Shown in pieces: positions 31,264 through 64,000 of a stretch of 64,000 bases of DNA (the first letter of the stretch is position 1; each line of letters begins with the position of its first letter). The DNA lies in the NCBI GenBank assembly GCA_938038785.1, contig CALHTB010000021.1:6279-70278 (forward strand), given 5' to 3'. The notes under the pieces were generated by a model, which worked only from the letters and a program-made list of their open reading frames with translations, ran no database searches and was not told the DNA's origin. Position numbers and translations under genes: made by a program. This stretch comes from an uncultured Acidimicrobiales bacterium. GTDB taxonomy: Bacteria; Actinomycetota; Acidimicrobiia; Acidimicrobiales; SHLQ01.

Positions 31264-31323
31264 GGCCCCGGGTTCATACTTTCGGCCGATCCGCGATTCT
31301 CGATCGTCACTTACTGTGGACGT

Positions 31324-32460: not shown

Positions 32461-33116
32461 CCATCCGAGTCCTGATCGCTGACGACCAAGATCTCGTTCG
32501 AGTCGGGCTGCAGATGATCCTCGACAACGAAGATGACATCGACGTGGTCGGCATGGCCTCCGATGGTCGCGAGGCCGTTGAGATGGCCCGGACACTTCGC
32601 CCGGACGTGTGCCTGTTCGACATTCGAATGCCCGAACTCGACGGAATCGCAGCGACGGAAATCTTGGCCGGCCCAGACGTTGACGACCCGCTGGCCATCG
32701 TCATTATCACCACGTTCGATCTGGACGAATACGTGCATGGCGCCCTCAAGGCCGGCGCCCGTGGCTTCCTGCTCAAAGATGCGGGTCCTGAACTGCTCGT
32801 GCAAGCAATTCACGCGGCCGCGCGCGGTGACGCGCTGATCGCACCGAGCGTCACGGTTCGATTGTTGAGTACCTTCGCCGACGCAAGCTCACCGAGCACC
32901 GCGGTGCAGCCAATCGACGCGCTCACCGATCGGGAAGAAGAGGTGTTGCTGTCCGTTGCGGCCGGACACACCAACGACGAAGTGGCCCGCGAGCTGTTCA
33001 TCAGCCTGAGCACTGTCAAGACCCACCTCGCCAGCTTGATGAGCAAGCTCGGTGCCCGGAACCGCGTCGAGATCGCCATGTGGGCGTACGAAACCGGCCG
33101 GGTCCCGAAGATCTAG
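32457..33116 (+). CDS. Response regulator, NarL/LuxR family
   Basis: RVLIADDQDLVR...DIRMPELDG receiver domain. C-terminal LTDREEEVL...STVKTHL HTH. Start overlaps the kinase stop (ATGA). Confidence 0.9.
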   Translation: MTIRVLIADDQDLVRVGLQMILDNEDDIDVVGMASDGREAVEMARTLRPDVCLFDIRMPELDGIAATEILAGPDVDDPLAIVIITTFDLDEYVHGALKAGARGFLLKDAGPELLVQAIHAAARGDALIAPSVTVRLLSTFADASSPSTAVQPIDALTDREEEVLLSVAAGHTNDEVARELFISLSTVKTHLASLMSKLGARNRVEIAMWAYETGRVPKI

Positions 33117-48580: not shown

Positions 48581-49050
48581 TGCCACCTGAGTCGGTTCCG
48601 GGATGGATCGTGGTTCATCTCGATGCACTACTGCGCGAGCGGAATATGACCGCGACCGAGCTCGCCGAGCGCATCGGCATCACTCAGGCGAACGTGTCGA
48701 TCTTGAAGACAGGCAAGGCCAAAGCAATACGGTTCACGACCCTCATGGCGATCTGTGACGTGCTCAGCTGTCAGCCCGGCGACCTTCTGTCGTTCGAACG
48801 TGATGGGTCGTCCAGTCCCCAAGACGGTTCGGCTCGCGTCGGCGGTGGAGGCGTGAAGTTACTCGATTCAGGAGATCGACCTGTCGCCGTCATCAAGGTA
48901 ATGAGGCAGCTCGGAGGTCTCGGACTACGAGAAGCAAAGGAGCTGGTCGAGGGGGCTCCTTGTGTTGTCTTGACCGGAATGGAGAAGGCCGACGCGTACT
49001 CGGCCATGGTGAAGTTGCGCTCGGCTGGCGCCACGGTGGAGCCGATGTAA
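48580..49050 (+). CDS. YozG-like XRE-family HTH regulator fused to a ribosomal protein L7/L12 C-terminal-like domain
   Basis: IVVHLDALLRERNMTATELAERIGITQANVSILKTGKAKAIRFTTLMAICDVLSCQPGDLLSFE is near-collinear with B. subtilis YozG. After a Gly/Ser linker, PVAVIKVMRQLGGLGLREAKELVEGAPCVVLTGMEKADAYSAMVKLRSAGATVE parallels the L7/L12 CTD ([26 protein letters not shown]...AEALKKALEEAGAEVE). Confidence 0.65.
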   Translation: MPPESVPGWIVVHLDALLRERNMTATELAERIGITQANVSILKTGKAKAIRFTTLMAICDVLSCQPGDLLSFERDGSSSPQDGSARVGGGGVKLLDSGDRPVAVIKVMRQLGGLGLREAKELVEGAPCVVLTGMEKADAYSAMVKLRSAGATVEPM

Positions 49051-49131
49051 GCGACATTTCTGCAAAACAAACTTGGGAACTTTTTCGGCGTTTGCTGCAA
49101 CCAACAGGCAAACCAAGAAAAAGGAGAAGTC

Positions 49132-50418
49132 ATGTTCAGCAGAAATACAGCTCAATCATCGAAAGTGGTAGCCCTTCTTTCAGCACTGGCAATGGTGGTT
49201 GCTCTACTCGCTACGGCTGCGCCAGCGGGGGCTCAAGACAACCCGTTGGAAGGTCTGGAGGAGTTTGGGTGCGAGTGGACGTCGGTTGTGGAGAATCGGC
49301 CGATTCGGTACGTGCAACCTGGGCAGACGTTTCGCGGTACCCCGGGCCGAGACATCATTGTCGGCACATCGGGAAATGACCGGATCATCGGACGCTCCGG
49401 AGATGATGTGATCTGTGGACGAGGTGGCAACGACACCATCAGCGGGGGTGACGGCGACGATCGCCTGCTCGGTGGCGGTGGTAACGACTTCCTTAGCGGC
49501 GGTGCCGGAGGCGACCACATCTTTGGCCGAACAGGCCACGACACCATCCGAGGCGGAGACGGAAGCGACACGATTGGGGGCGACGGAGGCTGGGACAAGC
49601 TGTTCGGCGAAAATGGCGATGACGACATCACCGGTGAGGCTGGCAACGACACCATTGAAGGTGGTTCAGGCAACGATGACATCATTGCGGGATCGGGCAA
49701 TGACACTGTGCGCGGAGGCACCGGCAACGACAGGATGGACGGCGGCGAGGGCAACGATTCTCTAGCAGGTGGTAGCGGCACCGACCGGGCCAACGGGGGT
49801 CCCGGCATCGATACGTGCAAGGCCGAGCGAGGGCTGAATGGGGAACCGCGCCCGACAAACTGTGAAGCGGCGAACGCCCAACAGTCCACCAGCACTCAAT
49901 CTCAGCAACCAACCTCGTCAGGCGTTCGCTTGGCAAAGCATCCGAACGCATCTGATGCCCACATGATTTATCCAGGTCAAGGAGTGCGTCGCTGGGTCGA
50001 CGCCAGCTGTCTCGGTCAGATTTACCAGGCACAGCTGCCGGTTGGGTCGTTCCAGAATTGGAACACCGAGGTGGCTATCTACTCGGCGAGCAACACAAAG
50101 TCATGCGGCGAGTACAAGGCAGACCTTGGCGGCTCATCGAGCAATTCACCAACGCCAAGCCAACCGTCGAACCCAAGCACGCCGAGCCAGCCGTCTGGCA
50201 GTGTCGGCGAGTTCGCGGCGGTTGCCGGAGACAATCATGAGGCGTGGATCTTGATGTCGGACGGCACCCGTCACTGGATCAACCAGTCGTGTCGCAATCA
50301 GCTCACCGCTGCGCTGGGAGCGCCGCGATACGTGTCCTACAACGCCGAGTTGCGTAACCGCTCCGACACCCCGGGCAGCAATCGTCTCAGCTGCGGCCAA
50401 TTGCAGGCACAGCTGTAA
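49132..50418 (+). CDS. Secreted calcium-binding RTX-repeat (hemolysin-type nonapeptide) protein with a duplicated Cys-containing C-terminal module
   Basis: AAAGGAG RBS. Sec signal MFSRNTAQSSKVVALLSALAMVVALLATAAPAGAQD. About 18 consecutive GxxGxDxxx nonapeptides. Two related roughly 60-aa modules (RRWVDASC...SCGEY and RHWINQSC...SCGQL) separated by a Ser/Pro linker. Confidence 0.8.
   Translation: MFSRNTAQSSKVVALLSALAMVVALLATAAPAGAQDNPLEGLEEFGCEWTSVVENRPIRYVQPGQTFRGTPGRDIIVGTSGNDRIIGRSGDDVICGRGGNDTISGGDGDDRLLGGGGNDFLSGGAGGDHIFGRTGHDTIRGGDGSDTIGGDGGWDKLFGENGDDDITGEAGNDTIEGGSGNDDIIAGSGNDTVRGGTGNDRMDGGEGNDSLAGGSGTDRANGGPGIDTCKAERGLNGEPRPTNCEAANAQQSTSTQSQQPTSSGVRLAKHPNASDAHMIYPGQGVRRWVDASCLGQIYQAQLPVGSFQNWNTEVAIYSASNTKSCGEYKADLGGSSSNSPTPSQPSNPSTPSQPSGSVGEFAAVAGDNHEAWILMSDGTRHWINQSCRNQLTAALGAPRYVSYNAELRNRSDTPGSNRLSCGQLQAQL
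49336..49821 (+). repeat. About 18 tandem 27-bp coding repeats (RTX nonapeptides)
   Basis: GTPGRDIIV GTSGNDRII GRSGDDVIC GRGGNDTIS GGDGDDRLL ... GGPGIDTCK read directly from the translation. Confidence 0.85.
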
Positions 50419-50432
50419 ACAGAAAAATGGTG

Positions 50433-50469
50433 GTCCGGCTGTCGGCATTCGACCTGTTGGCAGCCGGAC
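50433..50469 (+). terminator. Hairpin after the RTX gene
   Basis: GTCCGGCTG (50433-50441) pairs with CAGCCGGAC (50461-50469) around a 19-nt loop. No clear U-tract. Confidence 0.4.
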
Positions 50470-50561
50470 TCGCCCATGCATAGCGGCATCGACTTAAAGG
50501 CAGGTGCCAACCTTGCCAGTGACAACGGAATGATCTGTCAACGCCTCAGGGTTGGTTCGGC

Positions 50562-51359
50562 ATGCGATCTCCGGGACTTCCTGCACTCCTCACCGCCCTT
50601 GCGCTGCTCGCAGCCGCATGTTCGGCGACTTCCAACTCCGAATCCACCAGCGAGACGTCCGATCCCGAAACTACCGAGGCGCCAGCTGCGACCGTTCCAG
50701 CGACACCGCCTGCAATCGAAGCTGGTGGTACCGCCGTGGGCTTAGTCGAGATCGATGGCACCGAGATCGAGTACGTCACTTCGGTTCCCGCTGGATTCAG
50801 CATTGGCGACGAGGCGCCACTGCTACTCGCCTTCCCACCCGGAGGTCAAGATCTCAGGCTCACCCAATCGCTCGTTGAAGGAACCTACGCCCCCGAAGCC
50901 CAACGCCTCGGATGGGTCGTGGTGAGCCCAGCTGCCCCCGCCGGCGTGAAGTACTTCGATGGCAGCGAAGCGCTCGTGCCAGGCCTTCTCGACTGGGTCG
51001 AGACCTGGATCGCGCCCGAAGGCGGCGCTCCTCATGTCGCTGGCGTGAGCAACGGTGGCATCAGCTCGTTCCGGTACGCCGCGCAGAACCCCAATCGAGT
51101 TCGGTCGGTCATCAGCTTCCCCGGTTTCCCGCGATCATCGGGCGATCAAGAAGCACTTGCCGACCTGGTGGGTGTGCCGATCCGCATGTACGTCGGCGAG
51201 TCCGACACCAGCTGGATCCCGCCTGCCGAAGAGGCAGTTGCCTCCTTCACCGAAGCCGGCGGCGACATCGAACTCACCATCTTCCCGGGCGAAGGCCACG
51301 TGATGGCGTCGACCCGCGACGGCACGCTCATCTTTGAACAGCTCGAGTTGTTCCGCTAA
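50562..51359 (+). CDS. Lipoprotein alpha/beta hydrolase (esterase / PHB-depolymerase-like)
   Basis: Lipobox LLAAAC in MRSPGLPALLTALALLAAACSAT. GVSNGG nucleophile elbow. Confidence 0.7.
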   Translation: MRSPGLPALLTALALLAAACSATSNSESTSETSDPETTEAPAATVPATPPAIEAGGTAVGLVEIDGTEIEYVTSVPAGFSIGDEAPLLLAFPPGGQDLRLTQSLVEGTYAPEAQRLGWVVVSPAAPAGVKYFDGSEALVPGLLDWVETWIAPEGGAPHVAGVSNGGISSFRYAAQNPNRVRSVISFPGFPRSSGDQEALADLVGVPIRMYVGESDTSWIPPAEEAVASFTEAGGDIELTIFPGEGHVMASTRDGTLIFEQLELFR

Positions 51360-52258
51360 CGCGAGTTGATCTCGACGGCGCCGAGATCTCCAATGAACGG
51401 ATGCGCCTGCCTCAGGTCGAGGAGATGCCGTGCCGGGTGCATCGACAGCAGCTTTGCTGCACGCTCCCGATCGATCGTGTGGTTGCGATCTCGCTGGCAG
51501 GTTGTGCACCAGGCGGTTCGACGCTGCCACGGCGACTGTGATCCGGACATTTTCTTCACGTCCCCTCCGCACAGCGGGCAGTCACGACGCTTGATGTTCA
51601 GCATCCAATGTTCGGTCAGGTGGAGTCGGCGCCCGGTTGTGTTCTGCGGCCCTCGGACAGCGTTGGTCCGAATCAGCGCTGCGCCGATGGCGATGAGCGC
51701 ACCAACGTCGTCGACATCGCCAACCCGAGTGAAGGGTGAAACGCCACAAATGAACGGTGTGTCGACGGCATAGATATTGCCGAAGCCAGCGACGTTGCGC
51801 TGGTCGAGCAGCGCTGCGCTGAGGTGTCGACCTGGGTCTCGGCCGACCTTGGTCGTCGCAAGCTCAAGGTCGAGATCACCGCACAGGTCGGTGCCGAGAT
51901 GTCCGACGAAGTCATCCGTCGAGCTCGACGAAACGTGATGCAGGAGTGGAATGTCGATACCGACGACCGTCTCGCCCGTGTTGAACCTGATCTCGAAACG
52001 GCGACGCCACTCCTCAACCTCACGGGCACGCCCGAAGACGACCTTGCCCTGCATTAACAGATGTATGTGCAGCGCTTTGCCATCGTCGAAGTGAAGAAAG
52101 AGATGCTTGCCGTGGGAGCTGGTTTTGGTGAGCGTCGAACCGGTGAGGTCGACTGTCGCCAACCTGGGGTGGCGCACGATCATCGATTCGACCGTAGCCC
52201 CAGCCACACGCTCGCGAACTGAGGCTGCGAGCCGCGCAATAGTGTCTCCCTCAGGCAT
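51356..52258 (-). CDS. Fpg/Nei family DNA glycosylase (endonuclease VIII-like)
   Basis: MPEGDT N-terminus, H2TH region, and a C-terminal zinc finger CPLCGG...CTTCQ. Confidence 0.85.
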   Translation of the reverse strand: MPEGDTIARLAASVRERVAGATVESMIVRHPRLATVDLTGSTLTKTSSHGKHLFLHFDDGKALHIHLLMQGKVVFGRAREVEEWRRRFEIRFNTGETVVGIDIPLLHHVSSSSTDDFVGHLGTDLCGDLDLELATTKVGRDPGRHLSAALLDQRNVAGFGNIYAVDTPFICGVSPFTRVGDVDDVGALIAIGAALIRTNAVRGPQNTTGRRLHLTEHWMLNIKRRDCPLCGGDVKKMSGSQSPWQRRTAWCTTCQRDRNHTIDRERAAKLLSMHPARHLLDLRQAHPFIGDLGAVEINSR

Positions 52259-52352
52259 AGCGGGCCAGCGTCGTCATCGAGGTGAACCTATCGCTTCGCG
52301 CCTTTGGGCTACGGCTTGAGCCAGGAGCGAAACCGTCTGGCATGATCGGTAG

Positions 52353-53930
52353 ATGTCCACCTATGACGGAACCGTTCGAGCGAGCAGCCACATGGTGGCG
52401 AGTGCTGATCAGCTGGCCACAACCGCTGGCAATGCGATGTTCGCTGCAGGCGGAAACGCCGTCGACGCAGCCATCGCCACCAATGCGGTTATCACGGTCG
52501 TCGGGCCGCACCTGTGTGGCATGGGCGGAGACCTCTTTGCCCTCGTCTACGCCGGGGGCGAGGTGTTCTCGCTGAACTCGAGCGGCTGGGCCGGTTCGGG
52601 TGCATCGGCCGACGAGCTCCGCGCCGAGGGCCTGACCGAGATGCCTTACCGTCACGACATACGGTCGGTGACGGTGCCGGGGTGTGTTGATGGTTGGCTT
52701 GCGCTGCACGAGCGATTCGGCTCGTTGCCACTCATGCAGATTCTCGAGCCCGCCCAGCGTTTGGCCGCGAATGGCTTTCCTGCGGGGCCGCCGCTCACGG
52801 GCGGGTTGGCCTCGTTGGATGAAGCCAGCCGAGCACAACTCCATGAGATGGCGAACCAATCGAACAACGTCGGTGATCGCATCCGCCGGCCCGGTGTCGC
52901 GGCAGCGCTTGCGGGCATTGCCGAGTCTGGGCGCTCAGCGTTCTACGGCGGTGCCTTTGGAGCAGGGCTGATCGAGCTGGGGAAGGGCTTGTTCACTGAG
53001 GACGATCTCGCGACCCCGATCGCTCGATGGGAAGAGCCACTCACCACGACAGCGTTTGGCGTCGAACTGTCGACCGCAAGCCCGAACAGCCAGGGCTACC
53101 TCGCCTTGGCGGGCGCTCGGCTCGCCGAGCAGCTCGACCTTCCCGACGCCGACGATGCGCGGTGGGCCCACCTTCTCGCCGAAGCGGCCAAGGCGGCCGG
53201 GCGAGATCGTCCAACGCAGCTCTTCGAAGGCGCGGGCGGCTCGGCGATCATCGAGGAGATTGCAGGCCGCGTCGGTGAGATCGATGCGGACGTGGCGTCG
53301 ACCTCGCCCGCTCCGGGCCGCGATGGAGACACGACCTACCTCTGCACCGCCGGCAGGGGAGTCGACGGTCAAATGATGGCGGTCTCGCTCATCCAATCGA
53401 ATGCGGCCGGGTTCGGAAGCCACCTTGTCGAACAGAACACTGGCATCAACCTGCACAACCGTGGGCTTGGGTTCAATCTGACGCCCGGCCACCCGGCGGA
53501 AGTGGCACCCGGACGACGACCACCGCACACACTCGTACCAGCGATTGCCGTTCGCAATGGCGAGCTGTTGTCGGTGTTCGGAACGATGGGTGGTGACGCG
53601 CAACCGCAGATCTTGCTGCAGCTCATCGTGCGTATGTTTCATCACGAGCAAACGCCAGGCGTGGCGATCAACGCTGGACGTTGGGCGTTGCGCGGCGCGG
53701 CGACCGGGTTCGATGCTTGGGCAACACCACTCGATCTCCTGCTGGCCGTTGAGGGCCAGACGCCAGCTAGTTGGGACTCGGCTCTGGCCGATCGAGGTCA
53801 CCGCACCGAGCGGCTCGACGTCAACGACTCACGATTTGGGCACGCACACGCAATCGTGGTCGAACCAACCGGCATGCTCGCAGGCGCGGCCGATCCGCGA
53901 ACGATCATTGGCAGCTGCGCCGGCGGCTAA
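52353..53930 (+). CDS. ggt: Gamma-glutamyltransferase
   Basis: 525 aa. GGNAVDAAIA, the GDTTYL autoprocessing Thr block, and TMGGDAQPQ. Confidence 0.9.
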   Translation: MSTYDGTVRASSHMVASADQLATTAGNAMFAAGGNAVDAAIATNAVITVVGPHLCGMGGDLFALVYAGGEVFSLNSSGWAGSGASADELRAEGLTEMPYRHDIRSVTVPGCVDGWLALHERFGSLPLMQILEPAQRLAANGFPAGPPLTGGLASLDEASRAQLHEMANQSNNVGDRIRRPGVAAALAGIAESGRSAFYGGAFGAGLIELGKGLFTEDDLATPIARWEEPLTTTAFGVELSTASPNSQGYLALAGARLAEQLDLPDADDARWAHLLAEAAKAAGRDRPTQLFEGAGGSAIIEEIAGRVGEIDADVASTSPAPGRDGDTTYLCTAGRGVDGQMMAVSLIQSNAAGFGSHLVEQNTGINLHNRGLGFNLTPGHPAEVAPGRRPPHTLVPAIAVRNGELLSVFGTMGGDAQPQILLQLIVRMFHHEQTPGVAINAGRWALRGAATGFDAWATPLDLLLAVEGQTPASWDSALADRGHRTERLDVNDSRFGHAHAIVVEPTGMLAGAADPRTIIGSCAGG

Positions 53931-54952
53931 ACACCGCTCAGGCTCGTCGAAGCGACACGAGCCGAGACCCGAGCGAAGACCTCAGCGGTGGTCGCAAAAT
54001 CATCCTCGTCGTGGGGAATGTCGAGGATGAGCGTGCGGTGACCGCGAGCCCAATACGACGTGAGCTCGGCTGCCACTTCATCGAAGTCACCAACGAGGTA
54101 CGGACAGAACGTGTTGTAGTTCTGGAACGGGCCAAGCCAATACGCGTTGCCTCCAGCTGCCGACTCGTCGGCGAGCTTCGACAGGGTGGCGTGCCATTGG
54201 GAGTCTGACTTTGCCATCGCCATCTCATGGAGCATCTCGCCCCGGCGATCAGGCGGGAACCGTTCGTGGGCGATGCGCCAGGCGTCTTCGCTTCGCTCTC
54301 GGGCAATGATGCCAACACGTATCCCGGTGGCGGTCCCAGTGGCCGGCGCGGTTGTCTCCTGGCCAGCTGGCTCCGGATACTGAATCGCAGTCGCTCCCAA
54401 GACGCTGGCCGTTGCTAGCCCTGCATCCGATGAGCCCGACATGAGTAAGCCGGGTTGTAGCTCGACCGGCATTGGAGGGGCAAGCTTCAAGGTGTTCGCG
54501 GTGTACCACTCGCCCTCTACCGAAACCGTCTCACCGGCCGTCAAACCAAGAACGATTTCGGTGAACTCTCGCAGCCGGTCGTATCTGCGATCGTGTGGCG
54601 TGGTATCACCGATCGATTCCAGGTCGCCGCGAAATCCGCCAGCGATCATGTTCAGATGCACGCGCCGCTCGTAGAGATGGGCAATGGACGACAACATCTT
54701 GGCAACTCCGTATGGAGGCATTGCCGTTGGCTGCACCGCAACGAGTGGCGACACTGACGTCGTCGCCTTGATGATCTCCGTTGCGACTAACCAAGGGTCG
54801 ATCAAGCTGTGGTCGTAGTAGACGAGAATGCCGTCGTAGTCGTAGTCCTGACACCAACCTGAGATTTTCCGTACACGGCCGAGATAGTCGGGTCGGTCGA
54901 TCTTGCTTGACTGAGGGCAGGTCGAGAAGACCTCGAATCGCTCCATGCTCAT
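53927..54952 (-). CDS. LLM-class (luciferase-like) flavin-dependent oxidoreductase
   Basis: 342 aa from ATG 54952 (MSMERFEVFSTCPQS...YDGILVYYDH...). TIM-barrel LLM pattern similar to the SsuD/SfnG group. ATGA overlap with the upstream stop. The long N-terminal extension in the track is rejected. Confidence 0.75.
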   Translation of the reverse strand: MSMERFEVFSTCPQSSKIDRPDYLGRVRKISGWCQDYDYDGILVYYDHSLIDPWLVATEIIKATTSVSPLVAVQPTAMPPYGVAKMLSSIAHLYERRVHLNMIAGGFRGDLESIGDTTPHDRRYDRLREFTEIVLGLTAGETVSVEGEWYTANTLKLAPPMPVELQPGLLMSGSSDAGLATASVLGATAIQYPEPAGQETTAPATGTATGIRVGIIARERSEDAWRIAHERFPPDRRGEMLHEMAMAKSDSQWHATLSKLADESAAGGNAYWLGPFQNYNTFCPYLVGDFDEVAAELTSYWARGHRTLILDIPHDEDDFATTAEVFARVSARVASTSLSGV

Positions 54953-55818
54953 ACCATTACCTTTCGTGCCTTGATGACGTCGATCCATCGATCTCGGGCG
55001 GACACCGAGATCATTCCGTTCTCGTTGCGTAGATGCCCCGGCGACGCGTCCGACTCGTCGCCAATCGCGACTTCGATCAGGTCGAAGAGCTCTCCGTCGA
55101 TCCGTGCTCGAGGGACGGTCCAAGGGCTTGTGAATGGACGGAAGTCGGCGGCGCGGACGTGGGCGTCGATCTCCGATGCCGGGGCTGCCCAGTCGATCAT
55201 CCCTTCGTTGGGCTGTCCTCGTCCGAAATACTGCCGGCGCGTCAACTCTTGAGGCGTATGTGGAACAGAGCCAGGGTCCTCCGCAAGCTGATCGAGCAAC
55301 GCAGCGACGAGCCGCAACCCACGGCTGGCGCACTCCGCCGACAGTGAGAGGCCGGTCGCGTTGTCACGAATCGAGAATCGATCCTCGTAGGTGAGATGAC
55401 CAGCGTCGTACTCCGGCGTCATTTGATGGAGGCTCACGCCGTACTCTCGCCACCCAAGCGCCACCGCCCAGCTAGGAGCATTGATCCCCGCCGCTTCGGG
55501 CAGCGGTCCCGGGTGCAGATTCCACGCCCCCACTTCGAAGACATCAAGAACCTCGGTGCACACCTTCGGAAGCGAGTGCACATTGAGCAAGACGTCAGGA
55601 GCCGCTGCCTCAACCACACGAGCGGAGTCGGGTCGGCTCAACTCGCGGGCGTCCATCAAGGGCACAGCCATGTCGCTGGCAATGGAGCGCATCGCAGTCC
55701 CAGCGTCAGTCGGTGACGTCGCCACCAACACCAGTTCATGCTCTGAACGCTCGATCAACCTGAGGGCTCGCTGACCAGCGGACTCATCGGCGGCGAGGAT
55801 GATTCGCAATCCGCTCAC
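54949..55818 (-). CDS. Formyltransferase (Fmt/PurN-fold with C-terminal Fmt-like domain)
   Basis: LLNVHSLPK...NLHPGPLPEAAGINAPSWAVALG...HQMTPEYDAGHL preserves the N...H...D catalytic pattern of N10-formyl-THF transferases. GTG start overlaps the upstream stop (GTGA). Confidence 0.7.
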   Translation of the reverse strand: MSGLRIILAADESAGQRALRLIERSEHELVLVATSPTDAGTAMRSIASDMAVPLMDARELSRPDSARVVEAAAPDVLLNVHSLPKVCTEVLDVFEVGAWNLHPGPLPEAAGINAPSWAVALGWREYGVSLHQMTPEYDAGHLTYEDRFSIRDNATGLSLSAECASRGLRLVAALLDQLAEDPGSVPHTPQELTRRQYFGRGQPNEGMIDWAAPASEIDAHVRAADFRPFTSPWTVPRARIDGELFDLIEVAIGDESDASPGHLRNENGMISVSARDRWIDVIKARKVMV

Positions 55819-56927
55819 CGTGGTACCGCCGACACGGGGTTGATGAGGAACTCACCTTCGAGCGGGCTGAGCAATGCACGTCCCTGCTGGAAGCAATCGA
55901 GCAACTTTGGCTTCGACGTGTGAATCGAGGTCGCCTCAGACGAGGTCACGGTGCACCCGAGGTCGCTCGCCGGGTAGATCAGGTCGAGGGGCAAGCGGCC
56001 TTCGACTATCACTGCGTTATTGATCTGGGCTTGCGTTAGTGCTTGCAGCAGCACCGTCCGTCGATGCGCGTCGACGGCCATCATCTGAACGACTTCGGCG
56101 TGACCGAACTCGTTGATGTCCATGATGTACCAGCCGAGGGTGCGACCCCGAGGGTTGAGGACCGCATGGGCGATGATCGAGCTATTCGGCCTGCTTCGCT
56201 CGATCAATCTCCAGGTGTGTTCGAGATGACCGATGTCGGAGAAGTCGGGGTGCAGATCGGCGGCGGTGAGCATGTTCGACAGGTTGTCGGCGACATGTTC
56301 GGTCGTAAGCTCCTCGATCGAGATGCCACGGGGACTCTCCGGAAGTTCTGCATGCAATGATCGTCGAAGAAGTCGCCCGGCCAAACGTTCCCCTTGCTGG
56401 GCCACGTCGGTCGCCCGGCTAATGGAGATGCGCGTGCGGCTTGCAAGTTGCTGACTCCGCGCCGTACCTCGTTGAAGAACCTTCCGCCATCGCAGGCTTG
56501 AGGCCGGGAGTTGTTCAAAACCAGCGGCTTGAAGTGCGACGCGCCCAGCAGTGTTCGAACGGTCCACGAACACAAGATCTTGCGGTCCCTCGATGACAGC
56601 ACGAAGAAGATGTACTGCGGCCAGCGACGACCGGGCATTCGGGTCGACCATCAAGTGAGAAGTTGAGGCGGACCACAAACGTTCACCGCTGAAGACCACC
56701 GGCTGACAGCCCACGAGCACAAACCCGTGCACGTCACCGTCTTGTTCGAAGACCAGTGACGGGCTGGCGTGGGCAGAGTATCGGTGGTTGAGGATCAGCT
56801 CCGGCACCTTGACGGTGTACCCCCGAACGACCTCGTCGACCGTGTTGCCAATATGGCCTTGGGCGTTGAGGTGTACCTGCGCCATCTGCTCAAGGTCGGC
56901 TTCACGGACCGCTCGAACTTCACCCAT
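55815..56927 (-). CDS. Protein of unknown function with GNAT-like N-terminal half
   Basis: 370 aa. VRAVREADLEQMAQVH...VHGFVLVG...HLMVDPNARSSLAAVHLLRAVIEG looks like a divergent GNAT fold. The C-terminal half is unassigned. Confidence 0.4.
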   Translation of the reverse strand: MGEVRAVREADLEQMAQVHLNAQGHIGNTVDEVVRGYTVKVPELILNHRYSAHASPSLVFEQDGDVHGFVLVGCQPVVFSGERLWSASTSHLMVDPNARSSLAAVHLLRAVIEGPQDLVFVDRSNTAGRVALQAAGFEQLPASSLRWRKVLQRGTARSQQLASRTRISISRATDVAQQGERLAGRLLRRSLHAELPESPRGISIEELTTEHVADNLSNMLTAADLHPDFSDIGHLEHTWRLIERSRPNSSIIAHAVLNPRGRTLGWYIMDINEFGHAEVVQMMAVDAHRRTVLLQALTQAQINNAVIVEGRLPLDLIYPASDLGCTVTSSEATSIHTSKPKLLDCFQQGRALLSPLEGEFLINPVSAVPR

Positions 56928-57171
56928 TGGTCACCTCGGAAGACGCGAGCAACTCCCCGAACGCTTTCGTCATGCGCCGTGGCGTGCGCAGATCGTCCAG
57001 GTTCAGATCGCCCACGGTCAGCTTCTGGCCCGTTCGTTGCTCGACTGCCAGCAGCAGCTCGACGAAGCGCAGCGAATCGAGCTCGCCGGTGTCGATGAGG
57101 TCGTGGTCGGGGCTATCGATGAGCAGAAAGAGCTCGTCTTCGAGGATTTCGATAATGGTCTCGAGGGTCAT
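56920..57171 (-). CDS. Stand-alone carrier protein (PCP / DltC-like)
   Basis: 83 aa. DTGELDSLRFVELLLAVE contains the DSL phosphopantetheine-attachment motif. ATGA overlap with the adenylation gene. Confidence 0.75.
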   Translation of the reverse strand: MTLETIIEILEDELFLLIDSPDHDLIDTGELDSLRFVELLLAVEQRTGQKLTVGDLNLDDLRTPRRMTKAFGELLASSEVTNG

Positions 57172-58751
57172 TTGGATACCTCTTTCTGCAGGAATCGTGA
57201 TCGAAGTTCAGGCCGGTCGATCTTGCCGTTCACGTTCTTGGGCAATTCATCGAGCTGAATCCACCGATGGGGAAGCATGTACTTGGGGACCAGACCGCCC
57301 AATGCCTTCGCAAGCCGTGCGGGCCTGATCGGCTCGGGAGCGGTATAGGCAGCTGCAATCGCCGAACCATCGACGTGGTCGAGCTCGATAGCGACGATGG
57401 CCGAGTCGGTCAGTTCGTCGAGCGTTTGAAGAGCCGACTCGATTTCGCCAAGCTCGATTCGGTAGCCGCGGCTCTTGATTTGGGTGTCCTCGCGGCCAAT
57501 GAAGGTTGCAACGTTGTGCTCGTCGAGCGAGGCGAGATCGCCCGTCTTGTAGACACGTCGGTTGGGAAGAAGATCCGTCCTGAACACGGCGGCGGTCTTC
57601 GTCGGGTCCTTCCAATAGCCAGGGCTGAGGCCAACACCTTCGATGTACAGGTTTCCAATCTCTCCAGGGTCGGCATGGCTACCGTCGTCGCGCAGTACGA
57701 GTAGCGCCTCCCCAGCACATGCAACGCCAATGGGAATCGAAGCTGTTGGGTCGTCTGGTTTGTGCTCAACTCGATGCCAGCTACTTGCGATCGTGGCTTC
57801 GGTTGGTCCGTAGAGATTCGTGAATTCGACGTGAGGCATGGCCGTCATGAGCGCGATGAGCGTGGGCGTTGGGAGCACTTCTCCGCACCACATCAGACGC
57901 CGCAAGCTAGCAAAGGGTTCTTGGGGCAACTCGCCGACGCGAGTCAAGTGATTGAGTGCCGACGGTACGGAGAACCATTGGGTGAGTTGGTTGGTGTGGA
58001 TCCACTCGATCAGGTCGGCAGGGTTGGCGTTGACGTTCTTCGGTACTGGGTGCAGCGTGGCTCCTGCTGCGAACGTTGCATAGATATCCATCGTGGACAG
58101 ATCGAAGTGCAGTGGTGAGTGGCCCGAGATGTGGTCGTCGGCGAGGTAACAAAAGTGTTCGACTACCCAATCGACGTACGCCAACACGTTTTCGTGGGTG
58201 ATGATCACTCCCTTTGGTTCACCCGTTGACCCCGAGGTGAACAGAATGTGAGCGGTGTCCCTTGGCGTGATATCGGGTCGCCCAAGAGCTACCTCGCCGT
58301 CGTATGCGTCAACTTCGGCTGCGCCGAACGCAGGCTCGACCGGCCACGTGGGCAGTGCTCCTTCGATCCAACCAAGAGCGACGTTGGGGTTCGCAGCCAG
58401 TGACGCCTCGACCGTCGTGATCGCAGAAGCATCGGCAATGACGACGGCTGGGTCAGCCGACGTGAGGATGCGGGTAATTCTTGCCGCTGGTGAATCTGGA
58501 TCGATCGGAACGTAGGGTGCTCCGAGCTTGGCCGCGGCAAGCATCGCCGCGATAGCACCGGCACCCTTAGGCATGGCGATCGCAACCCGATCGCCCGCAC
58601 CCACACCGAGGTCGATCAGCAGTCGAGCAATCTGGTTCGACCGCCGGTGCAGGTCTCGATAGGTCGATGTCGAGTCTTCCTCGCACACCGCGACCTTGTT
58701 GGGCGCATCTTTCGCCCAACCTACAACGTCGTCAAATAACAGCCTCGCCAT
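57168..58751 (-). CDS. Stand-alone amino-acid adenylation enzyme (DltA / NRPS A-domain family)
   Basis: TSGSTGEPKGV (A3), HFDLS (A4, with the Asp that binds an alpha-amino group), YGPTE, YKTGDL, GREDTQIKSRGYRIELGEIE (A8) and NGKIDR (A10). Confidence 0.9.
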   Translation of the reverse strand: MARLLFDDVVGWAKDAPNKVAVCEEDSTSTYRDLHRRSNQIARLLIDLGVGAGDRVAIAMPKGAGAIAAMLAAAKLGAPYVPIDPDSPAARITRILTSADPAVVIADASAITTVEASLAANPNVALGWIEGALPTWPVEPAFGAAEVDAYDGEVALGRPDITPRDTAHILFTSGSTGEPKGVIITHENVLAYVDWVVEHFCYLADDHISGHSPLHFDLSTMDIYATFAAGATLHPVPKNVNANPADLIEWIHTNQLTQWFSVPSALNHLTRVGELPQEPFASLRRLMWCGEVLPTPTLIALMTAMPHVEFTNLYGPTEATIASSWHRVEHKPDDPTASIPIGVACAGEALLVLRDDGSHADPGEIGNLYIEGVGLSPGYWKDPTKTAAVFRTDLLPNRRVYKTGDLASLDEHNVATFIGREDTQIKSRGYRIELGEIESALQTLDELTDSAIVAIELDHVDGSAIAAAYTAPEPIRPARLAKALGGLVPKYMLPHRWIQLDELPKNVNGKIDRPELRSRFLQKEVSK

Positions 58752-58838
58752 GACCCCCGCCTACCGTGCTGTCCCGCATGCTCAGCACAAAGACGACCAT
58801 AGTCCTCGGGTCCGATGGCCCGCAATGGCAATTTTTGG

Positions 58839-59468
58839 TTAGGGGCGTTCGCCGAAGTTTGGGCCCTCGGTGCGGGTGCGCTTGAGTTCCCAGAAGCCGT
58901 CCATAGTGCTCATGGTGACCATGGCATCCCAGAGAGCGAGACCTTCGTCGCCTTGAGGTGCTCGGCTGATGACCGGGCCAAAGATGCCGATCTTGCCTGA
59001 GTCAGAGGGGAAGGCAATGATCGGTGTGCCGACGTCTTGTCCGACCAGGGCAAGTCCTTTGTCCATTTTTTCGCGGATGACCGCGTCGAAAGACTCGTCG
59101 TCGTAGGCCGCTGCAAGCGCGGTGTCGAGGCCTGCATTCGAGAGCAGACGCTCGGCCGACACAGCCTCGTCGGCTACATCGCTGACCCCGTCGTGATGGA
59201 TATTGCGACCGCATTCCCAATAGAACTGGAACGCCGCGTCCATGCCATCGGCAGCCTTCACGGCTTCAAACACGCGCAACAGTTTGTGCGTGTGTTCGAC
59301 GGGAGCGAAGTAGTCGCTGTCCTCGGGCGGCTGGTTCTTGAACAGCAAGCTGATCGGTTGCCACGTGATATTCAGATCACGCTCTGGCTGCACAACGTCG
59401 ACGACCCAACGAGCCGTCACCCAACACCAAGGTCAAATCGGATCTACCCAGAATTCAATGTCTGTCAT
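58839..59468 (-). CDS. DsbA-like thiol oxidoreductase (Rv2466c family) interrupted by an in-frame TGA at the first Cys of the CxxC motif (selenoprotein candidate or pseudogene)
   Basis: Hand translation from ATG 59468 gives MTDIEFWVDPI-TGA-PWCWVTARWVVDVV..., which then continues as the 193-aa track ORF. The family N-terminus, as I recall it for Rv2466c, is FWFDPLCPWCWITSRW. C-terminal FWELKRTRTEGPNF also matches the family. Confidence 0.6.
59400..59418 (-). other. Small hairpin 15 nt downstream of the in-frame TGA (possible SECIS-like element)
   Basis: RNA GACGGC-UCGUUGG-GUCGUC: a 6-bp stem (one G-U pair) with a 7-nt G-containing loop. Drawn by eye only. Confidence 0.25.
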
Positions 59469-59547
59469 GCGTCGACACTACTGGTCACATCCGCGCTGGC
59501 CTACATGTTCGCTCCGCGAGCTCCGCTCAGCCATGGCCGGCTCTCAC

Positions 59548-59590
59548 CAAAAGGTACCTGGTACCTAACGCCCGAAAGGTACCTGGCACC
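59548..59590. repeat. Direct repeat of a 16-mer containing GGTACC cores
   Basis: AAAGGTACCTGGTACC (59550-59565) and AAAGGTACCTGGCACC (59575-59590), period 25 bp. Shares CCGAAAGGTACC with 34013-34024 (reverse strand). Confidence 0.6.
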
Positions 59591-59659
59591 CTTCGATGCA
59601 TCGGTTCCGCTGAGCGGAACGAGTGGACGATATGTTCCGCTGGGTGGTTTACTATCGGG

Positions 59660-60376
59660 ATGGGACTTCTTGCGGTTGATCGGGTTGCGGCGGTGCTCGA
59701 AGCACTTGGTTCGGGGGCGAGGACGCTGCCTGAGGTGTGTGACGGTGCCGGGCTTCCGAAGTCGACCGCATCGCGGCTCATTGCCGCACTTGAGGAACAC
59801 GGCCTTGTGCACCGAGCCAGTGACGGGTCTCTGTCACTCGGCGCCACCCTTGGTTCCCTCGGCTCGCAACCGCCAGCGCTCGGCCGGTTGATCGACGCGG
59901 CCCGAACGCCAGCGCGCCGGTTGGCTGAAGCTACCGACGAGGCTGTGTGTCTGTCGGTGATCGCCGCTGGTGAGACCCACACCGTGTTCCAAGTCGATAC
60001 GCCAAAGGCCGTGTTCGCTCAGGATTGGGTCGATCGACGATGGCCCATCGAAGAGACCGGTTCGGCGATCTCGATTTTGTCGACCTGGTCACCTACTGAG
60101 GTAGCTGACGTCCTCGGTCCATTCGGCGCTCGCACACGGAAGAAGTTGTACGAGGCCATTGATGTCGCCCGGCGTCAACCGATCTCCTGGTCGGTCGACA
60201 ACTACGTCGATGGCTTGACGAGCGTCGCTGCTCCCATCGTCTCGGATCGAGGTCGGGCAACAAGCGCGTTGATCATCTACGGACCGAGCTACCGGTTCCC
60301 GACGACGAAGATGCGATTGAGGGTCGAGAGCTTGCTGGCGGGCGCTGCAGCCGAAATAGGGAAGGACCTGTACTGA
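59660..60376 (+). CDS. IclR-family transcriptional regulator
   Basis: VDRVAAVLEALGSGARTLPEVCDGAGLPKSTASRLIAALEEHGLV HTH plus an effector domain. Stop overlaps the next start (TGATG). Confidence 0.85.
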   Translation: MGLLAVDRVAAVLEALGSGARTLPEVCDGAGLPKSTASRLIAALEEHGLVHRASDGSLSLGATLGSLGSQPPALGRLIDAARTPARRLAEATDEAVCLSVIAAGETHTVFQVDTPKAVFAQDWVDRRWPIEETGSAISILSTWSPTEVADVLGPFGARTRKKLYEAIDVARRQPISWSVDNYVDGLTSVAAPIVSDRGRATSALIIYGPSYRFPTTKMRLRVESLLAGAAAEIGKDLY

Positions 60377-61893
60377 TGGCCCGACGAGGACGAGCACGTT
60401 CGACTGCTACCGAACCACGAGTTCGTCAGCTCCCGTGGCGCCAGGTAGAGATGACTCACGGACCACTACCGATTCTCGACGAGGAGGGTGTCGACCGAAT
60501 CCACAATGCGTCGATTCGGGTGCTCGAAGACCTCGGCATCGAACTGTGGAGCGAGGAAGCCCGGCAACTGTTCGCCGACGCGGGGGCGATAGTTGACGGT
60601 GAAGTCGTGCGGGTTGGTCGCGACATCATCGAGGAAGCGTTGACGACGGCGCCGAGCCGCTTCAATCTCACTAGTCGCAACGAGGCCAAACAGATCGAGC
60701 TTGGCGGCAACAAAATCGCGTTCGGCTTGGTCGCAGGCCCACCGTCGATCCACGACGAGATCCGTGGACGTCGACCGTCGAACATGGACGACTACAAGAA
60801 CTTCACGAAGCTGGCGCACTACTTCAACGCCATCCACATCATTGGTAACCAGGTGGCATCACCGCTCGAGCTGCCGGCCAATAACCGGCACCTCGACACC
60901 TACCTGGCAAACCTCACGCTGTCGGACCTCTGCTTTCACACACTGTCGATCGGGCGCGGTCGGGCCCGAGACGGCATTGAGATGATGGCGATTAGCCGAG
61001 GCATCTCGGTCGAGGAGATGGCCGAGTCACCCGGCGTTATCACGGTCATCAATGTGAACTCACCTCGTCGGTTCGACGAGGAGATGGCCAATGGCCTGAT
61101 GGAGATGTCGTCGAACGGCCAGGTCGTGTCGGTCACGCCCTTCACGCTCATGGGAGCGATGACCCCGGTGACGCTCGCCGCGGGCCTGACCCAACAAAAC
61201 GCCGAGGCGCTCTTCGGGATTGCACTCACTCAACTCACCAAGCCCGGTGCGCCAGTGGTCTACGGATCGTTCACCTCGAACGTCGACATGCGTTCTGGCG
61301 CCCCGGCCTTTGGTACCCCCGAACACACCAAAGCCAACGTGGTGTCGGGGCAACTCGCCCGTCGATACGGCCTGCCGTACCGCAGCTCGAACTCGAGCGC
61401 ATCGAATGTCGTGGACGCCCAGGCCGCGTACGAAACGCAGATGTCGCTGTGGGGGAGTGTGCTCGGCGGTACCAACCTGCTGTATCACGCCGCGGGCTGG
61501 ATGGAAGGCGGCCTTCAGGCCAGCTACGAAAAGCTCGTGCTCGATGTCGAGATGCTCCAGCAGATGATGGAGTTCCTGACCCCGATCGACCTCAGCGACG
61601 AAGCCCTGGCATTCGACGCCATGGAGCGAGTTCCAACCGGCGGCCATTTCTTCGGCGACGAGCACACGCTGGAGCGCTATGAGCATGCGTTCTACTCTCC
61701 GCTCATTTCCGACTGGCAGAACAACGGCGCCTGGCAAGAAGCCGGCAGTCTGACAGCTACCCAACGCGCCACGGCAGTGTGGCAAACCGCGCTCGACGAC
61801 TACAGCGAGCCTTCCATCCCCGACGATCGACGCGAGGCACTCGATGACTACGTAGCTCGCCGCAAGGAAGCAATCGGTGACGGCGAACCATGA
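60376..61893 (+). CDS. MttB-superfamily (trimethylamine methyltransferase-like) protein, non-pyrrolysine type
   Basis: 505-aa uninterrupted ORF. N-terminal PILDEEGVDRIHNASIRVLEDLGIELWSEEARQLFADAGA and the overall length are typical of COG5598 members. No in-frame TAG. Confidence 0.8.
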   Translation: MARRGRARSTATEPRVRQLPWRQVEMTHGPLPILDEEGVDRIHNASIRVLEDLGIELWSEEARQLFADAGAIVDGEVVRVGRDIIEEALTTAPSRFNLTSRNEAKQIELGGNKIAFGLVAGPPSIHDEIRGRRPSNMDDYKNFTKLAHYFNAIHIIGNQVASPLELPANNRHLDTYLANLTLSDLCFHTLSIGRGRARDGIEMMAISRGISVEEMAESPGVITVINVNSPRRFDEEMANGLMEMSSNGQVVSVTPFTLMGAMTPVTLAAGLTQQNAEALFGIALTQLTKPGAPVVYGSFTSNVDMRSGAPAFGTPEHTKANVVSGQLARRYGLPYRSSNSSASNVVDAQAAYETQMSLWGSVLGGTNLLYHAAGWMEGGLQASYEKLVLDVEMLQQMMEFLTPIDLSDEALAFDAMERVPTGGHFFGDEHTLERYEHAFYSPLISDWQNNGAWQEAGSLTATQRATAVWQTALDDYSEPSIPDDRREALDDYVARRKEAIGDGEP

Positions 61894-62600
61894 GGCCCCG
61901 CGTTCACCGCTACGGTCGGTTCATGATTGCTCGGCGTACAGTTCTCGCAGCAGGTGCTGGCCTCACTCTCGGAGCATGCGGGACCGCCAGCAGAGCGGAC
62001 AGGGATTCCCTGCTGGCGGCAAGCGCAACCTCCACGACGACCGTTGACGCGCTCGCCGCCGATACGACGAGTCAAGAGCCCATTGTCATCGCGCTCACGT
62101 TGCACCGACTCCTCGACGATGGCGAGTTGGGAACGATGCGAACTTCGGGCGAGCTCGACGACATCGGTCAGCGCATCAACGAGATTTGGGCGCAAGCCAA
62201 CATTGTCTTCGAACCACTTCTCGTACGCGATCTCGTCGTTCCCACGGCGGTGCTGGCTCCAATCGTCTCAAACGGGAACATCGATCCGTTGATCGACGCC
62301 TTTCGTTCATCTATCGAGATTTCGGATCCCGGAGTGTTTAACGGCTTCTTCTTGAGCTCAGCCTTCGGGGTTAATGGGTTTGCACCATCGGGGGTCCGAG
62401 CCTTCTTCGTTGTCGATGAGCCGACGGTGCATGATGAGCGGGTCACCAGCCACGAGATCGGCCATTTGCTCGGGCTGCACCACAACGCTGACGATCCCGA
62501 GCGGCTGATGTTCTCGGGCACCAACGGAACCACGCTCGATTCGGTCGAGCAAGTCGTGGCCCGCTACATCGCACAAGGAGTTCTCGATGGACAACGCTGA
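61890..62600 (+). CDS. Tat/lipoprotein-signal metzincin-type zinc metalloprotease
   Basis: MIARRTVLAAGAGLTLGAC (twin-Arg plus lipobox). HEIGHLLGLHH (HExxHxxGxxH) followed by LMF (a possible Met-turn). The start may be 61923. Confidence 0.65.
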   Translation: MRPRVHRYGRFMIARRTVLAAGAGLTLGACGTASRADRDSLLAASATSTTTVDALAADTTSQEPIVIALTLHRLLDDGELGTMRTSGELDDIGQRINEIWAQANIVFEPLLVRDLVVPTAVLAPIVSNGNIDPLIDAFRSSIEISDPGVFNGFFLSSAFGVNGFAPSGVRAFFVVDEPTVHDERVTSHEIGHLLGLHHNADDPERLMFSGTNGTTLDSVEQVVARYIAQGVLDGQR

Positions 62601-63270
62601 GTTTCGAGCTCGGTGGTCGCGCCGACTTCTGCTTTTGTTGGGCGGTGTGGTGCTGTTGGCGGCGTGTGGCAGCGACGACGTGCCGAGCGAATCCGCCAAC
62701 GACCCAACCGCGCCAGCAACCTCCTCTGTCTCTGCGACGGCTCTCGATTCGTCGGTGACAATTCCAAACGACGGTGGCTCGCTCGAAGGACACACCCCGC
62801 GGGGCTTCAATGGCATGGGTACCGGGTTGTTTGCGGGCGACGAGCTCAACTCGAATTTTCCGCCTGACGACGGGGTGCAAATTTGGCTGACATTCGCGTT
62901 CCCGGCCGATGTCGCAACCGCCGAGACCGCCGAACTACGTTCCGACGCGTTGACCGTTCGTGGCAACCCGTTTGAGGCGCTCGGTCCGCTCGAGATTGCT
63001 CCTGTTCAGTTCGCCGAGTTCAGCCCGGCCGTAGTCGACCTTGAGCCGGTCGGCCCGACGGTGACGTGCCCGATGCCGGAAGGATCATCGTTTCGATGCG
63101 ACGCCACGGATGCGGTTCAGACGGCCCTCGACGCGGGGGACGAACGTGTACAACTTCGTCTTCGCTTTGCTGGCGTCTCTGATCCCGACGGCGAACAGGA
63201 CATGGCATTGTTCTTCCTTAGTGATTCGAATACCAACGAACCGGGCATCTTCGAACTCGTAATTGAGTAA
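62587..63270 (+). CDS. Lipoprotein of unknown function
   Basis: RRLLLLLGGVVLLAACGSDD lipobox. The remainder is unassigned. Confidence 0.5.
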   Translation: MDNAEFRARWSRRLLLLLGGVVLLAACGSDDVPSESANDPTAPATSSVSATALDSSVTIPNDGGSLEGHTPRGFNGMGTGLFAGDELNSNFPPDDGVQIWLTFAFPADVATAETAELRSDALTVRGNPFEALGPLEIAPVQFAEFSPAVVDLEPVGPTVTCPMPEGSSFRCDATDAVQTALDAGDERVQLRLRFAGVSDPDGEQDMALFFLSDSNTNEPGIFELVIE

Positions 63271-63302
63271 CACCCGCCACATCAAACGCTAGGTTCTCGA
63301 CC

Positions 63303-64000
63303 ATGGACATTATTGAGGAGATTGTCGACGCTGAGACCGCCGACGGGACGATGGCGGTGTTGGTCAAGTACCCAGACGATGGTCAGCGGCATCCGACGAT
63401 TGCTGTCTTCCAGGATGCACCGGGTATACGGCAGTCGATCCACGACTTCACCCGACGGCTCGCCGCCGAGGGATATCGGGTCGTGACCCCCGATCTGCAT
63501 CACCGTCACGGACGGATGCTTGGTTGGGAGGCCAGTGAGGCCACCGATGAGACCCGAGCGAAGGTCATGGAGATGTTGGGCTCGATGACCGACGATCAAA
63601 TCCAAAGCGATCTCGATGATGCACTCGCCCTTATCGACCTCGATGCTGACGAACAGCTCGGTGTGCTCGGGTTCTGCCTTGGCGCCCGTGCGATGTTCCG
63701 TACGTTGATGCGCCTGCCTGACCGATTCGCGGTCGGAGCAACGTGGCACCCGTCGCTCCTCGTCTATGAACCCGACCCTCCGCATCTCACCGCTGCTCGG
63801 CTGAAGCAACCGGTGTACATCGGAATTGGTACTGCCGACGAAATTCAGTCGATCGAACTCCAACAACCATTCTTCGATGCTGTGGCCGACCTCGAGAACG
63901 TCGAGGTCGCGATTTTCGACGGGGCAGATCACGGCTTCACCTGGCCGCTGAGTCCGACTTACCACGAGCTCGCGGCAACGACCTCCTGGGATAAGACGAC
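63303..64000 (+). CDS. Dienelactone hydrolase family protein (3' end beyond window)
   Basis: Hand translation from ATG 63303: MDIIEEIVDAETADGTMAVLVKYPDDGQRHPTIAVFQDAPGIRQSIHDFTRRLAAEGYRVVTPDL...GVLGFCLGAR...ADHGF. The GFCxG nucleophile and HGF blocks are present. Absent from the ORF track because there is no stop in the window. Confidence 0.7.
   Translation, partial: MDIIEEIVDAETADGTMAVLVKYPDDGQRHPTIAVFQDAPGIRQSIHDFTRRLAAEGYRVVTPDLHHRHGRMLGWEASEATDETRAKVMEMLGSMTDDQIQSDLDDALALIDLDADEQLGVLGFCLGARAMFRTLMRLPDRFAVGATWHPSLLVYEPDPPHLTAARLKQPVYIGIGTADEIQSIELQQPFFDAVADLENVEVAIFDGADHGFTWPLSPTYHELAATTSWDKT

Follow-up and report, generated by a model that had tools for sequence, protein, structure and literature searches.

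A minus-strand gene at 58839-59468 of the DNA analysed here, a 64,000-nucleotide stretch of contig CALHTB010000021.1 from an uncultured Acidimicrobiales bacterium (hereafter the window; G+C ~61%), raises the question of whether an in-frame TGA near its 5' end stops translation or is read as selenocysteine (Sec, U). The gene encodes an Rv2466c-like, DsbA-like reductase, and the TGA occupies the position of the nucleophilic cysteine of that family. Comparison with orthologues leads us to the conclusion, to which we assign a probability of roughly 0.93, that the TGA is a genuine selenocysteine codon in an Rv2466c-type reductase gene. The host is a marine-type actinobacterium of the class Acidimicrobiia, selenoproteins of this kind have been known since 2005, and no new mechanism is involved.

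The TGA codon and its reading frame

The putative Sec-containing coding sequence (58839-59468, minus strand) comprises 209 codons, counting the UGA, followed by a TAA at 58841-58839. From an ATG at 59466-59468 it runs through ten codons specifying TDIEFWVDPI (59436-59465) to the TGA at 59433-59435, continues with CCT TGG TGT TGG GTG ACG GCT CGT TGG (PWCWV...) and is then uninterrupted to the TAA. A 193-residue open reading frame (ORF) starting at GTG 59420 shares its frame with the ATG at 59468 (MTDIEFWVDPI) and with the TGA, and our re-reading of the minus strand reproduced each of these elements as they stood in the initial annotation. A translation with Cys at the TGA matches Pfam PF22234 (Rv2466c-like) at 131.3 bits against a cutoff of 27, over profile positions 1-180 of 180; PF01323 (DSBA) is also above its cutoff (31.7 versus 25.6 bits), and a search of NCBIfam returned no model for the Rv2466c-like protein at 58839-59468. 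The Rv2466c crystal structures 4ZIL, 4NXI and 5XUR are matched at E ~1e-39 over query residues 5-206 and, together with the PF22234 score, agree with the Rv2466c/DsbA-like assignment first given to the gene.

In the structure alignment the TGA lies opposite the first Cys of DPLCPWCW in Rv2466c, a protein whose nucleophile is Cys19 and whose resolving residue is Cys22 (PMC8280269; also PMC6178380). The active-site signature C-P-W/F-C, defined for the DsbA-Mrx1 cluster in PMC8280269, is thus present as U-P-W-C, with the UGA at its first position and, from the alignment to Rv2466c and the literature, the TGT at 59424-59426 (minus strand) as the predicted codon of the resolving Cys. The proposal that the TGA replaces the nucleophilic Cys is consistent with this alignment to the first Cys of CPWC and with the role of Cys19. 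Relatives carry the motif as U-P-W-C, U-P-F-C, C-P-W-C or C-P-F-C.

The codon at the UGA site was read from DNA in a sample of 81 Acidimicrobiia sequences, made up of the window and, from among 566 relatives in a collection with one genome per species, the 80 that matched best. It is TGA in 70 of the 81, TGC in seven and TGT in four, and the 11 Cys-type orthologues have the first Cys of CPWC opposite the UGA. The nearest relatives of the gene are in metagenome-assembled genomes (MAGs) of Acidimicrobiia: Acidimicrobiales, Ilumatobacter, Ca. Microthrix, Ca. Poriferisodalis and Ca. Aldehydirespirator. Of four MAGs labelled Ilumatobacter in the sample, three have TGA, and complete chromosomes with the TGA form include OZ241331.1, OZ243946.1, NZ_OZ242344.1 and JAWPMS010000001.1. 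The codon counts bear on the possibility that the gene is a recent pseudogene, in which a single nonsense mutation turned TGC or TGT into TGA and left the gene otherwise intact. TGA is indeed one step from either Cys codon, and the remaining ORF is intact, but the same codon is TGA in orthologues whose protein identity to the window falls to ~58%, which rules out the very recent mutation that had been offered as the alternative.

The codons that precede the TGA argue against a pseudogene as well. The peptide x-I-E/D-F-W-V/I-D-P-I is in frame before the site in all 81 sequences, and a start codon lies 10-12 codons ahead of the TGA in most loci, with the codons between the two periodic as in coding sequence. 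In the 70 loci with TGA, the preceding eight codons are nearly fixed at their first and second positions and vary freely at the third (for example C33/T32/G4/A1, A31/G25/C8/T6 and C29/A17/T16/G8), a pattern of in-frame purifying selection which indicates that translation starts upstream and passes the TGA.

The same pattern bears on the possibility that the true product is the 193-residue protein from GTG 59420, the 11 codons upstream being either a short ORF of their own or a leader that is not translated. The gene callers of NCBI, ENA and JGI all call such a product, and the ~50 closest database proteins (99% to ~62% identity) are all called as 188-197 residues starting MTARW, so that their N-termini are cut off at exactly the same point as that of the window ORF; more distant homologues (~60% identity) are full length, with C-P-W/F-C. 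Such a protein, however, would be without the active-site strand of the thioredoxin fold and the nucleophile that are found in every Cys homologue and in Rv2466c, the codons that it drops show protein-level conservation in the frame of the TGA, and GTG 59420 is itself the Val codon of a conserved C-W-V-T-A-R-W. We regard the shorter product as highly improbable.

A sequencing or assembly error at 59433-59435 would also produce a spurious TGA. ENA contig ERZ6864144 c_000002573877 (74,804 bp) was assembled independently from a very close strain and, over 15,163 nt, matches window positions 48839-64000 at 99.83% identity. Its TGA and the sequence upstream of it are as in the window, and its DsbA-like ORF is at 48942-49523. 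This second assembly, used in place of the raw reads that had been suggested as a check, excludes a sequencing error for practical purposes: a mistake would have to recur in a sequence 0.17% different and in the 69 other genomes that have TGA, and its probability is negligible.

Upstream of the ATG, the hexamer TAGTGT (59475-59480, minus strand) has the form of a -10-like TANNNT element and ends 6 nt before the start codon. A TANNNT hexamer within 1-2 nt of position -12 from the start codon occurs in 40 of 82 loci, mostly at exactly -12, the window included; most of the remaining loci have a GGAGG- or AAGGA-like Shine-Dalgarno sequence instead. The comparison agrees with the earlier remark that no clear Shine-Dalgarno sequence precedes the ATG, and it suggests that the window mRNA is leaderless and starts at A 59468, which would explain the missing Shine-Dalgarno sequence. 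It also suggests that initiation is organised in two alternative ways among orthologues of this one group.

In a neighbour-joining tree of the 81 proteins, calculated without support values, the Cys forms fall in at least four places among the Sec clades, a scatter that points to repeated exchange of Sec and Cys. Two paralogues occur in MAG CAYGQE01, one of the Cys type (L037, TGC) and one of the Sec type (L038, TGA), and NZ_CBDCEO01 has two Sec-type paralogues (L066 and L071). Three contigs labelled Verrucomicrobiales, Ca. Azotimanducaceae and Gammaproteobacteria (L004, L033 and L059) carry an Acidimicrobiia-type Sec gene of 61-76% identity; these cluster inside Acidimicrobiia clades, and the contigs are probably mis-binned.

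The hairpin downstream of the UGA codon

A SECIS-like hairpin (SECIS, selenocysteine insertion sequence) lies within the coding sequence at 59400-59418 on the minus strand. Its 5' arm GACGGCUC (59418-59411) and 3' arm GGGUCGUC (59407-59400) form a helix of 8 bp that includes two G-U pairs and closes on the 3-nt loop GUU (59410-59408). The hairpin starts 14 nt after the UGA, at the 15th nucleotide, and, with numbering from the U of UGA, the G-U of its loop is at positions 26-27. The coordinates and the distance given in the initial annotation stand; its drawing of a 6-bp stem with a 7-nt loop is the outer part of the 8-bp helix, and the GUU loop describes the structure better.

We aligned the hairpin region of 63 distinct TGA sequences and, separately, of the 11 Cys-type sequences. 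RNAalifold predicts the same helix from the Sec alignment, in which 98.6% of the pair cells are standard pairs and 7-8 of the 8 pairs are kept in all 63 sequences, and slid registers of the same alignment reach 14-63% pairing. None of 500 shuffles matched the Sec set, whether in pairing, in covariation score or in the count of double changes, although the sequences are phylogenetically related and such counts are not probabilities. The Cys-type sequences are 75% paired, no better than shuffles (234/500). The Sec hairpins have energies of -10.7 to -16.4 kcal/mol, and the mean for the Cys set is -6.7 kcal/mol.

Two of the pairs have a synonymous site on either side. Pair 21/33, which joins the third positions of a Thr and a Val codon, is GC in 54, AU in four, GU in four and UG in one of the 63 Sec sequences, and pair 18/36, between the third positions of two Val codons, is GC in 59, GU in three and AU in one. 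Both therefore change on both sides (G-C to A-U) in a compensatory manner. Third-position entropy is 0.1-0.66 bit within the hairpin versus 1.6-1.8 bit at the flanking codons. The Arg codon of the loop is CGU in 55 and AGG in eight of the 63 Sec sequences, whereas it is CGU in only one of the 11 Cys forms and CGC, CGG or CGA in the other ten, which indicates that selection on the loop G-U is confined to the Sec forms. Conservation of the hairpin with covariation in the TGA forms only counts against a pseudogene, and together with the codon counts and the selection upstream it makes the pseudogene explanation extremely unlikely. The orthologue comparison proposed at the outset thus favours selenocysteine, with TGA in 70 of 81 sequences and the hairpin kept in the Sec forms.

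The AGG loop codon occurs at L055, L062, L064, L066, L071, L073, L075, L076, L077 and L079, mostly of the Ca. Poriferisodalis clade. The hairpin there has 7 bp and a 5-nt loop, AGGUG, and the distance of the G-U from the UGA is unchanged.

Selenium machinery and a second TGA gene in relatives

Genes for Sec synthesis and insertion were sought in the window and in 82 fetched stretches of Acidimicrobiia DNA (L001-L080, L083 and L084). In a tblastn search of 80 of these loci with E. coli SelA, SelB and SelD, the single match was a SelD in L007, where a 755-residue fusion of an N-terminal pyridine-nucleotide-disulfide oxidoreductase domain to SelD (7665-9932, minus strand) is adjacent and divergent to the TGA gene. 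The active site of this fusion is Cys-type (CGGCGAK). No SelD was found in the window by tblastn with the E. coli protein. The ENA contig described above, however, encodes a 728-residue Pyr_redox_2-SelD fusion at 30302-32488 (10001-12187 of L084), ~16.5 kb from the Sec gene and ~12-14 kb past position 64000 in window coordinates. A genome essentially identical to that of the window thus encodes selenophosphate synthetase near the Sec gene. Orthologues of the fusion lie on contigs of 84,701, 156,694, 518,459, 34,751 and 111,574 bp (the last being L011), sizes equal to those of contigs with the TGA gene. The closest homologues of the fusion outside Acidimicrobiia are from Rhodobacteraceae (Ruegeria and others), at ~54% identity.

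Acidimicrobiia already have many selenoproteins on record. Ilumatobacter coccineus, I. nonamiensis and Ca. Microthrix parvicella are positive for SelD, SelA and SelB (Peng et al. 2016, Table S1, PMC5029168) and have 15, 10 and 7 selenoproteins, respectively; Acidimicrobium ferrooxidans has none (Table S2, PMC5029168). In Actinomarina (order Actinomarinales), selC, selA and selD together with a divergent selB are present in 84 of 84 complete genomes (2026 preprint).

We also searched the fetched loci for TGA codons with conserved flanks whose counterparts in other loci are TGA or Cys codons, removing sites that lie under a long ORF in another frame. The output of a first scan consisted mostly of off-frame shadows of the DsbA-like gene, and the other survivors, apart from one family, were ordinary stops between adjacent genes. 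That family is a glutathione peroxidase (GPx) with TGA at the peroxidatic Cys, found at nine loci (L001, L002, L003, L004, L006, L008, L009, L011 and L012). Every one of these belongs to the clade nearest to the window, and L001 is the window's closest relative. The distance between the GPx gene and the DsbA-like gene is 2-10 kb; in L001 the GPx gene occupies 3372-3845 on the minus strand, with the TGA at 3741-3743 and a Pfam GSHPx score of 127.6 bits. Its motif is NVASxUGATPQY...LGFPCNQFG. Downstream of the TGA is a hairpin, GUACGCA-GGUC-UGCGUAC, whose synonymous sites are invariant in eight of the nine sequences and differ in the ninth by one U-A to U-G change; in a lower stem, which takes in the UGA, one C-G pair is swapped for G-C. 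At the core of this hairpin are 10 nt, GCAGGUCUGC, identical to those of the E. coli fdhF SECIS, as read from MG1655. Numbered from the U of UGA, the G-U of the loop occupies positions 26-27 in the GPx gene as in the DsbA-like gene and 23-24 in fdhF, and a G-U loop at equal distance from the UGA in two unrelated genes is as a common SelB-dependent mechanism predicts. Like the fdhF SECIS, the DsbA-like hairpin is in the coding region soon after the UGA and has a G-U in a small apical loop; unlike it, it has the loop GUU (AGGUG in the Poriferisodalis clade) rather than GGUC, lies one codon further from the UGA and has no evident bulged U.

The GPx gene is absent from the window and from L083 and L084, the flanks of the near-identical contig. 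Scans of the window for a second selenoprotein gene, based on G+C content at third codon positions and on CxxU/UxxC motifs, were too noisy. The two best read-throughs in the window, 23377-24150 and 62374-63270, were considered as selenoprotein genes and rejected as simply adjacent genes. The first (plus strand) consists of a 92-residue ORF closed by a TGA and, with nothing but this TGA in between, a SEC-C-motif protein (…CWCQSGRKYKNCCGA) in the same frame; we judged these to be two ordinary adjacent genes and not a selenoprotein gene.

Several points have to be set against selenocysteine. Folded alone, the 59-nt window sequence gives z = 0.0 versus dinucleotide shuffles, and the window hairpin, at -10.7 kcal/mol, is the weakest of the Sec set; being unexceptional alone, it draws its significance only from the comparative data. 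In those data the relatedness of the Sec sequences limits the shuffle counts, as noted above, and the invariant peptide T-A-R-W-V-V forces part of the pairing; Cys forms still keep 4-7 of the 8 pairs, and only the synonymous sites are independent evidence. Rfam gave no match, either for the window at the gathering threshold or for 59330-59480 at E <= 10. Bacterial SECIS elements are poorly represented in Rfam, and the lack of a match is therefore expected. ARAGORN found no tRNA-Sec in the window, which has no tRNA gene of any kind, or in the 82 loci, and tblastn with the E. coli MG1655 proteins found no SelA or SelB in the window or the fetched loci. Of the machinery that the initial annotation had named as a check, SelD alone is accordingly accounted for, on the 99.83% identical contig, and SelD alone does not prove Sec decoding. 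Selenium in the protein is a prediction from sequence comparison.

These points leave room for a UGA that is recoded through the hairpin to a residue other than Sec, or that is read through by a near-cognate tRNA as Trp or Cys. Delivery of Cys by a SelB-like factor with a tRNA-Sec-like tRNA has been described for some Geodermatophilaceae. With SelA, SelB and tRNA-Sec not located in the window or the fetched loci, such an arrangement would fit, and the inserted residue is undecidable from sequence data alone. Yet SelD is encoded on the near-identical contig and by the adjoining gene in L007, cultured Acidimicrobiia have SelA, SelB and SelD with 7-15 selenoproteins, and a TGA-containing GPx, a classical Sec/Cys family, is found in nine related genomes with the TGA form. 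Many window genes, moreover, use TGA as an ordinary stop, which argues against a general reassignment. We give recoding to another residue a small residual chance and continue with selenocysteine.

The product would be a cytoplasmic thiol-disulfide reductase of the Rv2466c/DsbA-Mrx1 type with Sec in place of the nucleophilic Cys (U-P-W-C). Translation would start at ATG 59468, probably on a leaderless mRNA, and the ribosome would not terminate at UGA 59435-59433. The hairpin at 59418-59400 would serve as a bacterial SECIS element, to which SelB carrying Sec-tRNA(Sec) is predicted to bind, inserting selenocysteine. In the mature enzyme the selenolate would attack mixed or intramolecular disulfides and Cys15 would resolve them, by analogy with Cys19 and Cys22 of Rv2466c, and the reductant would be a low-molecular-weight thiol system, mycothiol or another.

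Known relatives, gene neighbourhood and significance

DsbA-like selenoproteins are known from marine metagenomes, as the initial annotation stated: Zhang and Gladyshev 2005 (PMC1088965) reported DsbA-like UxxC selenoproteins as a new Sargasso Sea family of 9 sequences, assigned to COG2761, with a SECIS that has a small G-containing loop. DsbA-like selenoproteins were later found in 41 organisms (Peng et al. 2016, PMC5029168), and 'DsbA-like protein form 1' (PF01323, UxxC) is listed in a 2026 review (PMC13188914). This form and the window protein share a DsbA fold, Sec as the first residue of UxxC, a small-loop SECIS just downstream and widespread Cys homologues. They differ, in a comparison made by description only, in that the published family is PF01323/COG2761 and the window protein matches PF22234 best. 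Published representatives of the family are NIP15863.1 and AACY01178397, and the former is not among the listed members of the window protein's database cluster.

With M. tuberculosis Rv2466c (mycoredoxin-2) and C. glutamicum NCgl2339 and NCgl2478, of the DsbA-Mrx1 cluster, the window protein shares its Pfam family, fold, x-P-W-C motif and nucleophile position. Those proteins, however, have Cys where the window protein is predicted to have Sec, they are mycothiol-dependent, and the host here is an environmental member of Acidimicrobiia and not a mycobacterium. Members of the DsbA-Mrx1 cluster are mycothiol-dependent reductases without oxidase activity, and the window protein is placed among them by sequence. 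In the literature searched, we found nothing that joins Rv2466c with selenocysteine, or mycoredoxins with selenoproteins in substance.

The gene lies divergent to an IclR-family regulator (59660-60376, plus strand), which is followed by a full-length MttB-family methyltransferase (60376-61893, plus strand; Pfam MTTB, 666.8 bits). The latter has no in-frame stop and is therefore a non-pyrrolysine MttB. MttB is kept beside the Sec gene in L001-L005, L008 and L010 and the regulator in the same loci except L002; neither is kept further out. Downstream of the Sec gene is a small set resembling a non-ribosomal peptide synthetase (NRPS) system (53927-58751, minus strand), with an AMP-binding enzyme (57168-58751), a carrier protein (56920-57171) and a formyltransferase (54949-55818), all on the minus strand, as well as a 370-residue protein without an assigned family and a luciferase-like monooxygenase. 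This NRPS-like set, with its AMP-binding enzyme and peptidyl carrier protein, is not conserved beside the Sec gene even in the closest relative. We considered gene context as a clue to function and rejected it, the IclR/MttB pair being kept only in the closest clade and the AMP-binding/carrier-protein set not at all. In one sub-clade (L015, L035, L044, L045, L049, L065, L072 and L080) a tRNA-Arg(CCG) gene lies ~1.3-3.9 kb upstream on the same strand; L029 has it on the other strand, and it is no more than a marker of local synteny.

A wider reading, possible though somewhat doubtful, is that the Rv2466c-like clade of Acidimicrobiia is a selenoprotein family apart from the catalogued FrnE/COG2761 type. 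Sec would be the majority and probably the ancestral state in this family and Cys would have arisen repeatedly, with T-A-R-W-V-V, whose codons would supply most of the hairpin in any case, acting as a 'latent SECIS' that allows switches by a few synonymous changes. What may be new is the Rv2466c/DsbA-Mrx1 placement, the dominance of Sec in Acidimicrobiia, the 'latent SECIS' imposed by the peptide and the uniform mis-annotation of these genes.

The last of these is a systematic error: NCBI, ENA, JGI and Logan call proteins of 188-197 residues that lack the catalytic residue and are named 'hypothetical protein' or 'DsbA'. If the TGA is indeed a Sec codon, a true recoding event was recognisable from raw sequence, as in the initial annotation. 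The enzyme would be a natural selenium version of Rv2466c, the prodrug-activating reductase of M. tuberculosis, and the Sec/Cys pair of the same fold would offer a clean system in which to measure the benefit of selenium to a mycoredoxin-type enzyme. The dominance of the predicted Sec form, in 70 of 81 sequences spanning Ilumatobacter, Microthrix and the sponge-associated Poriferisodalis, adds to the evidence for selenium use by Acidimicrobiia.

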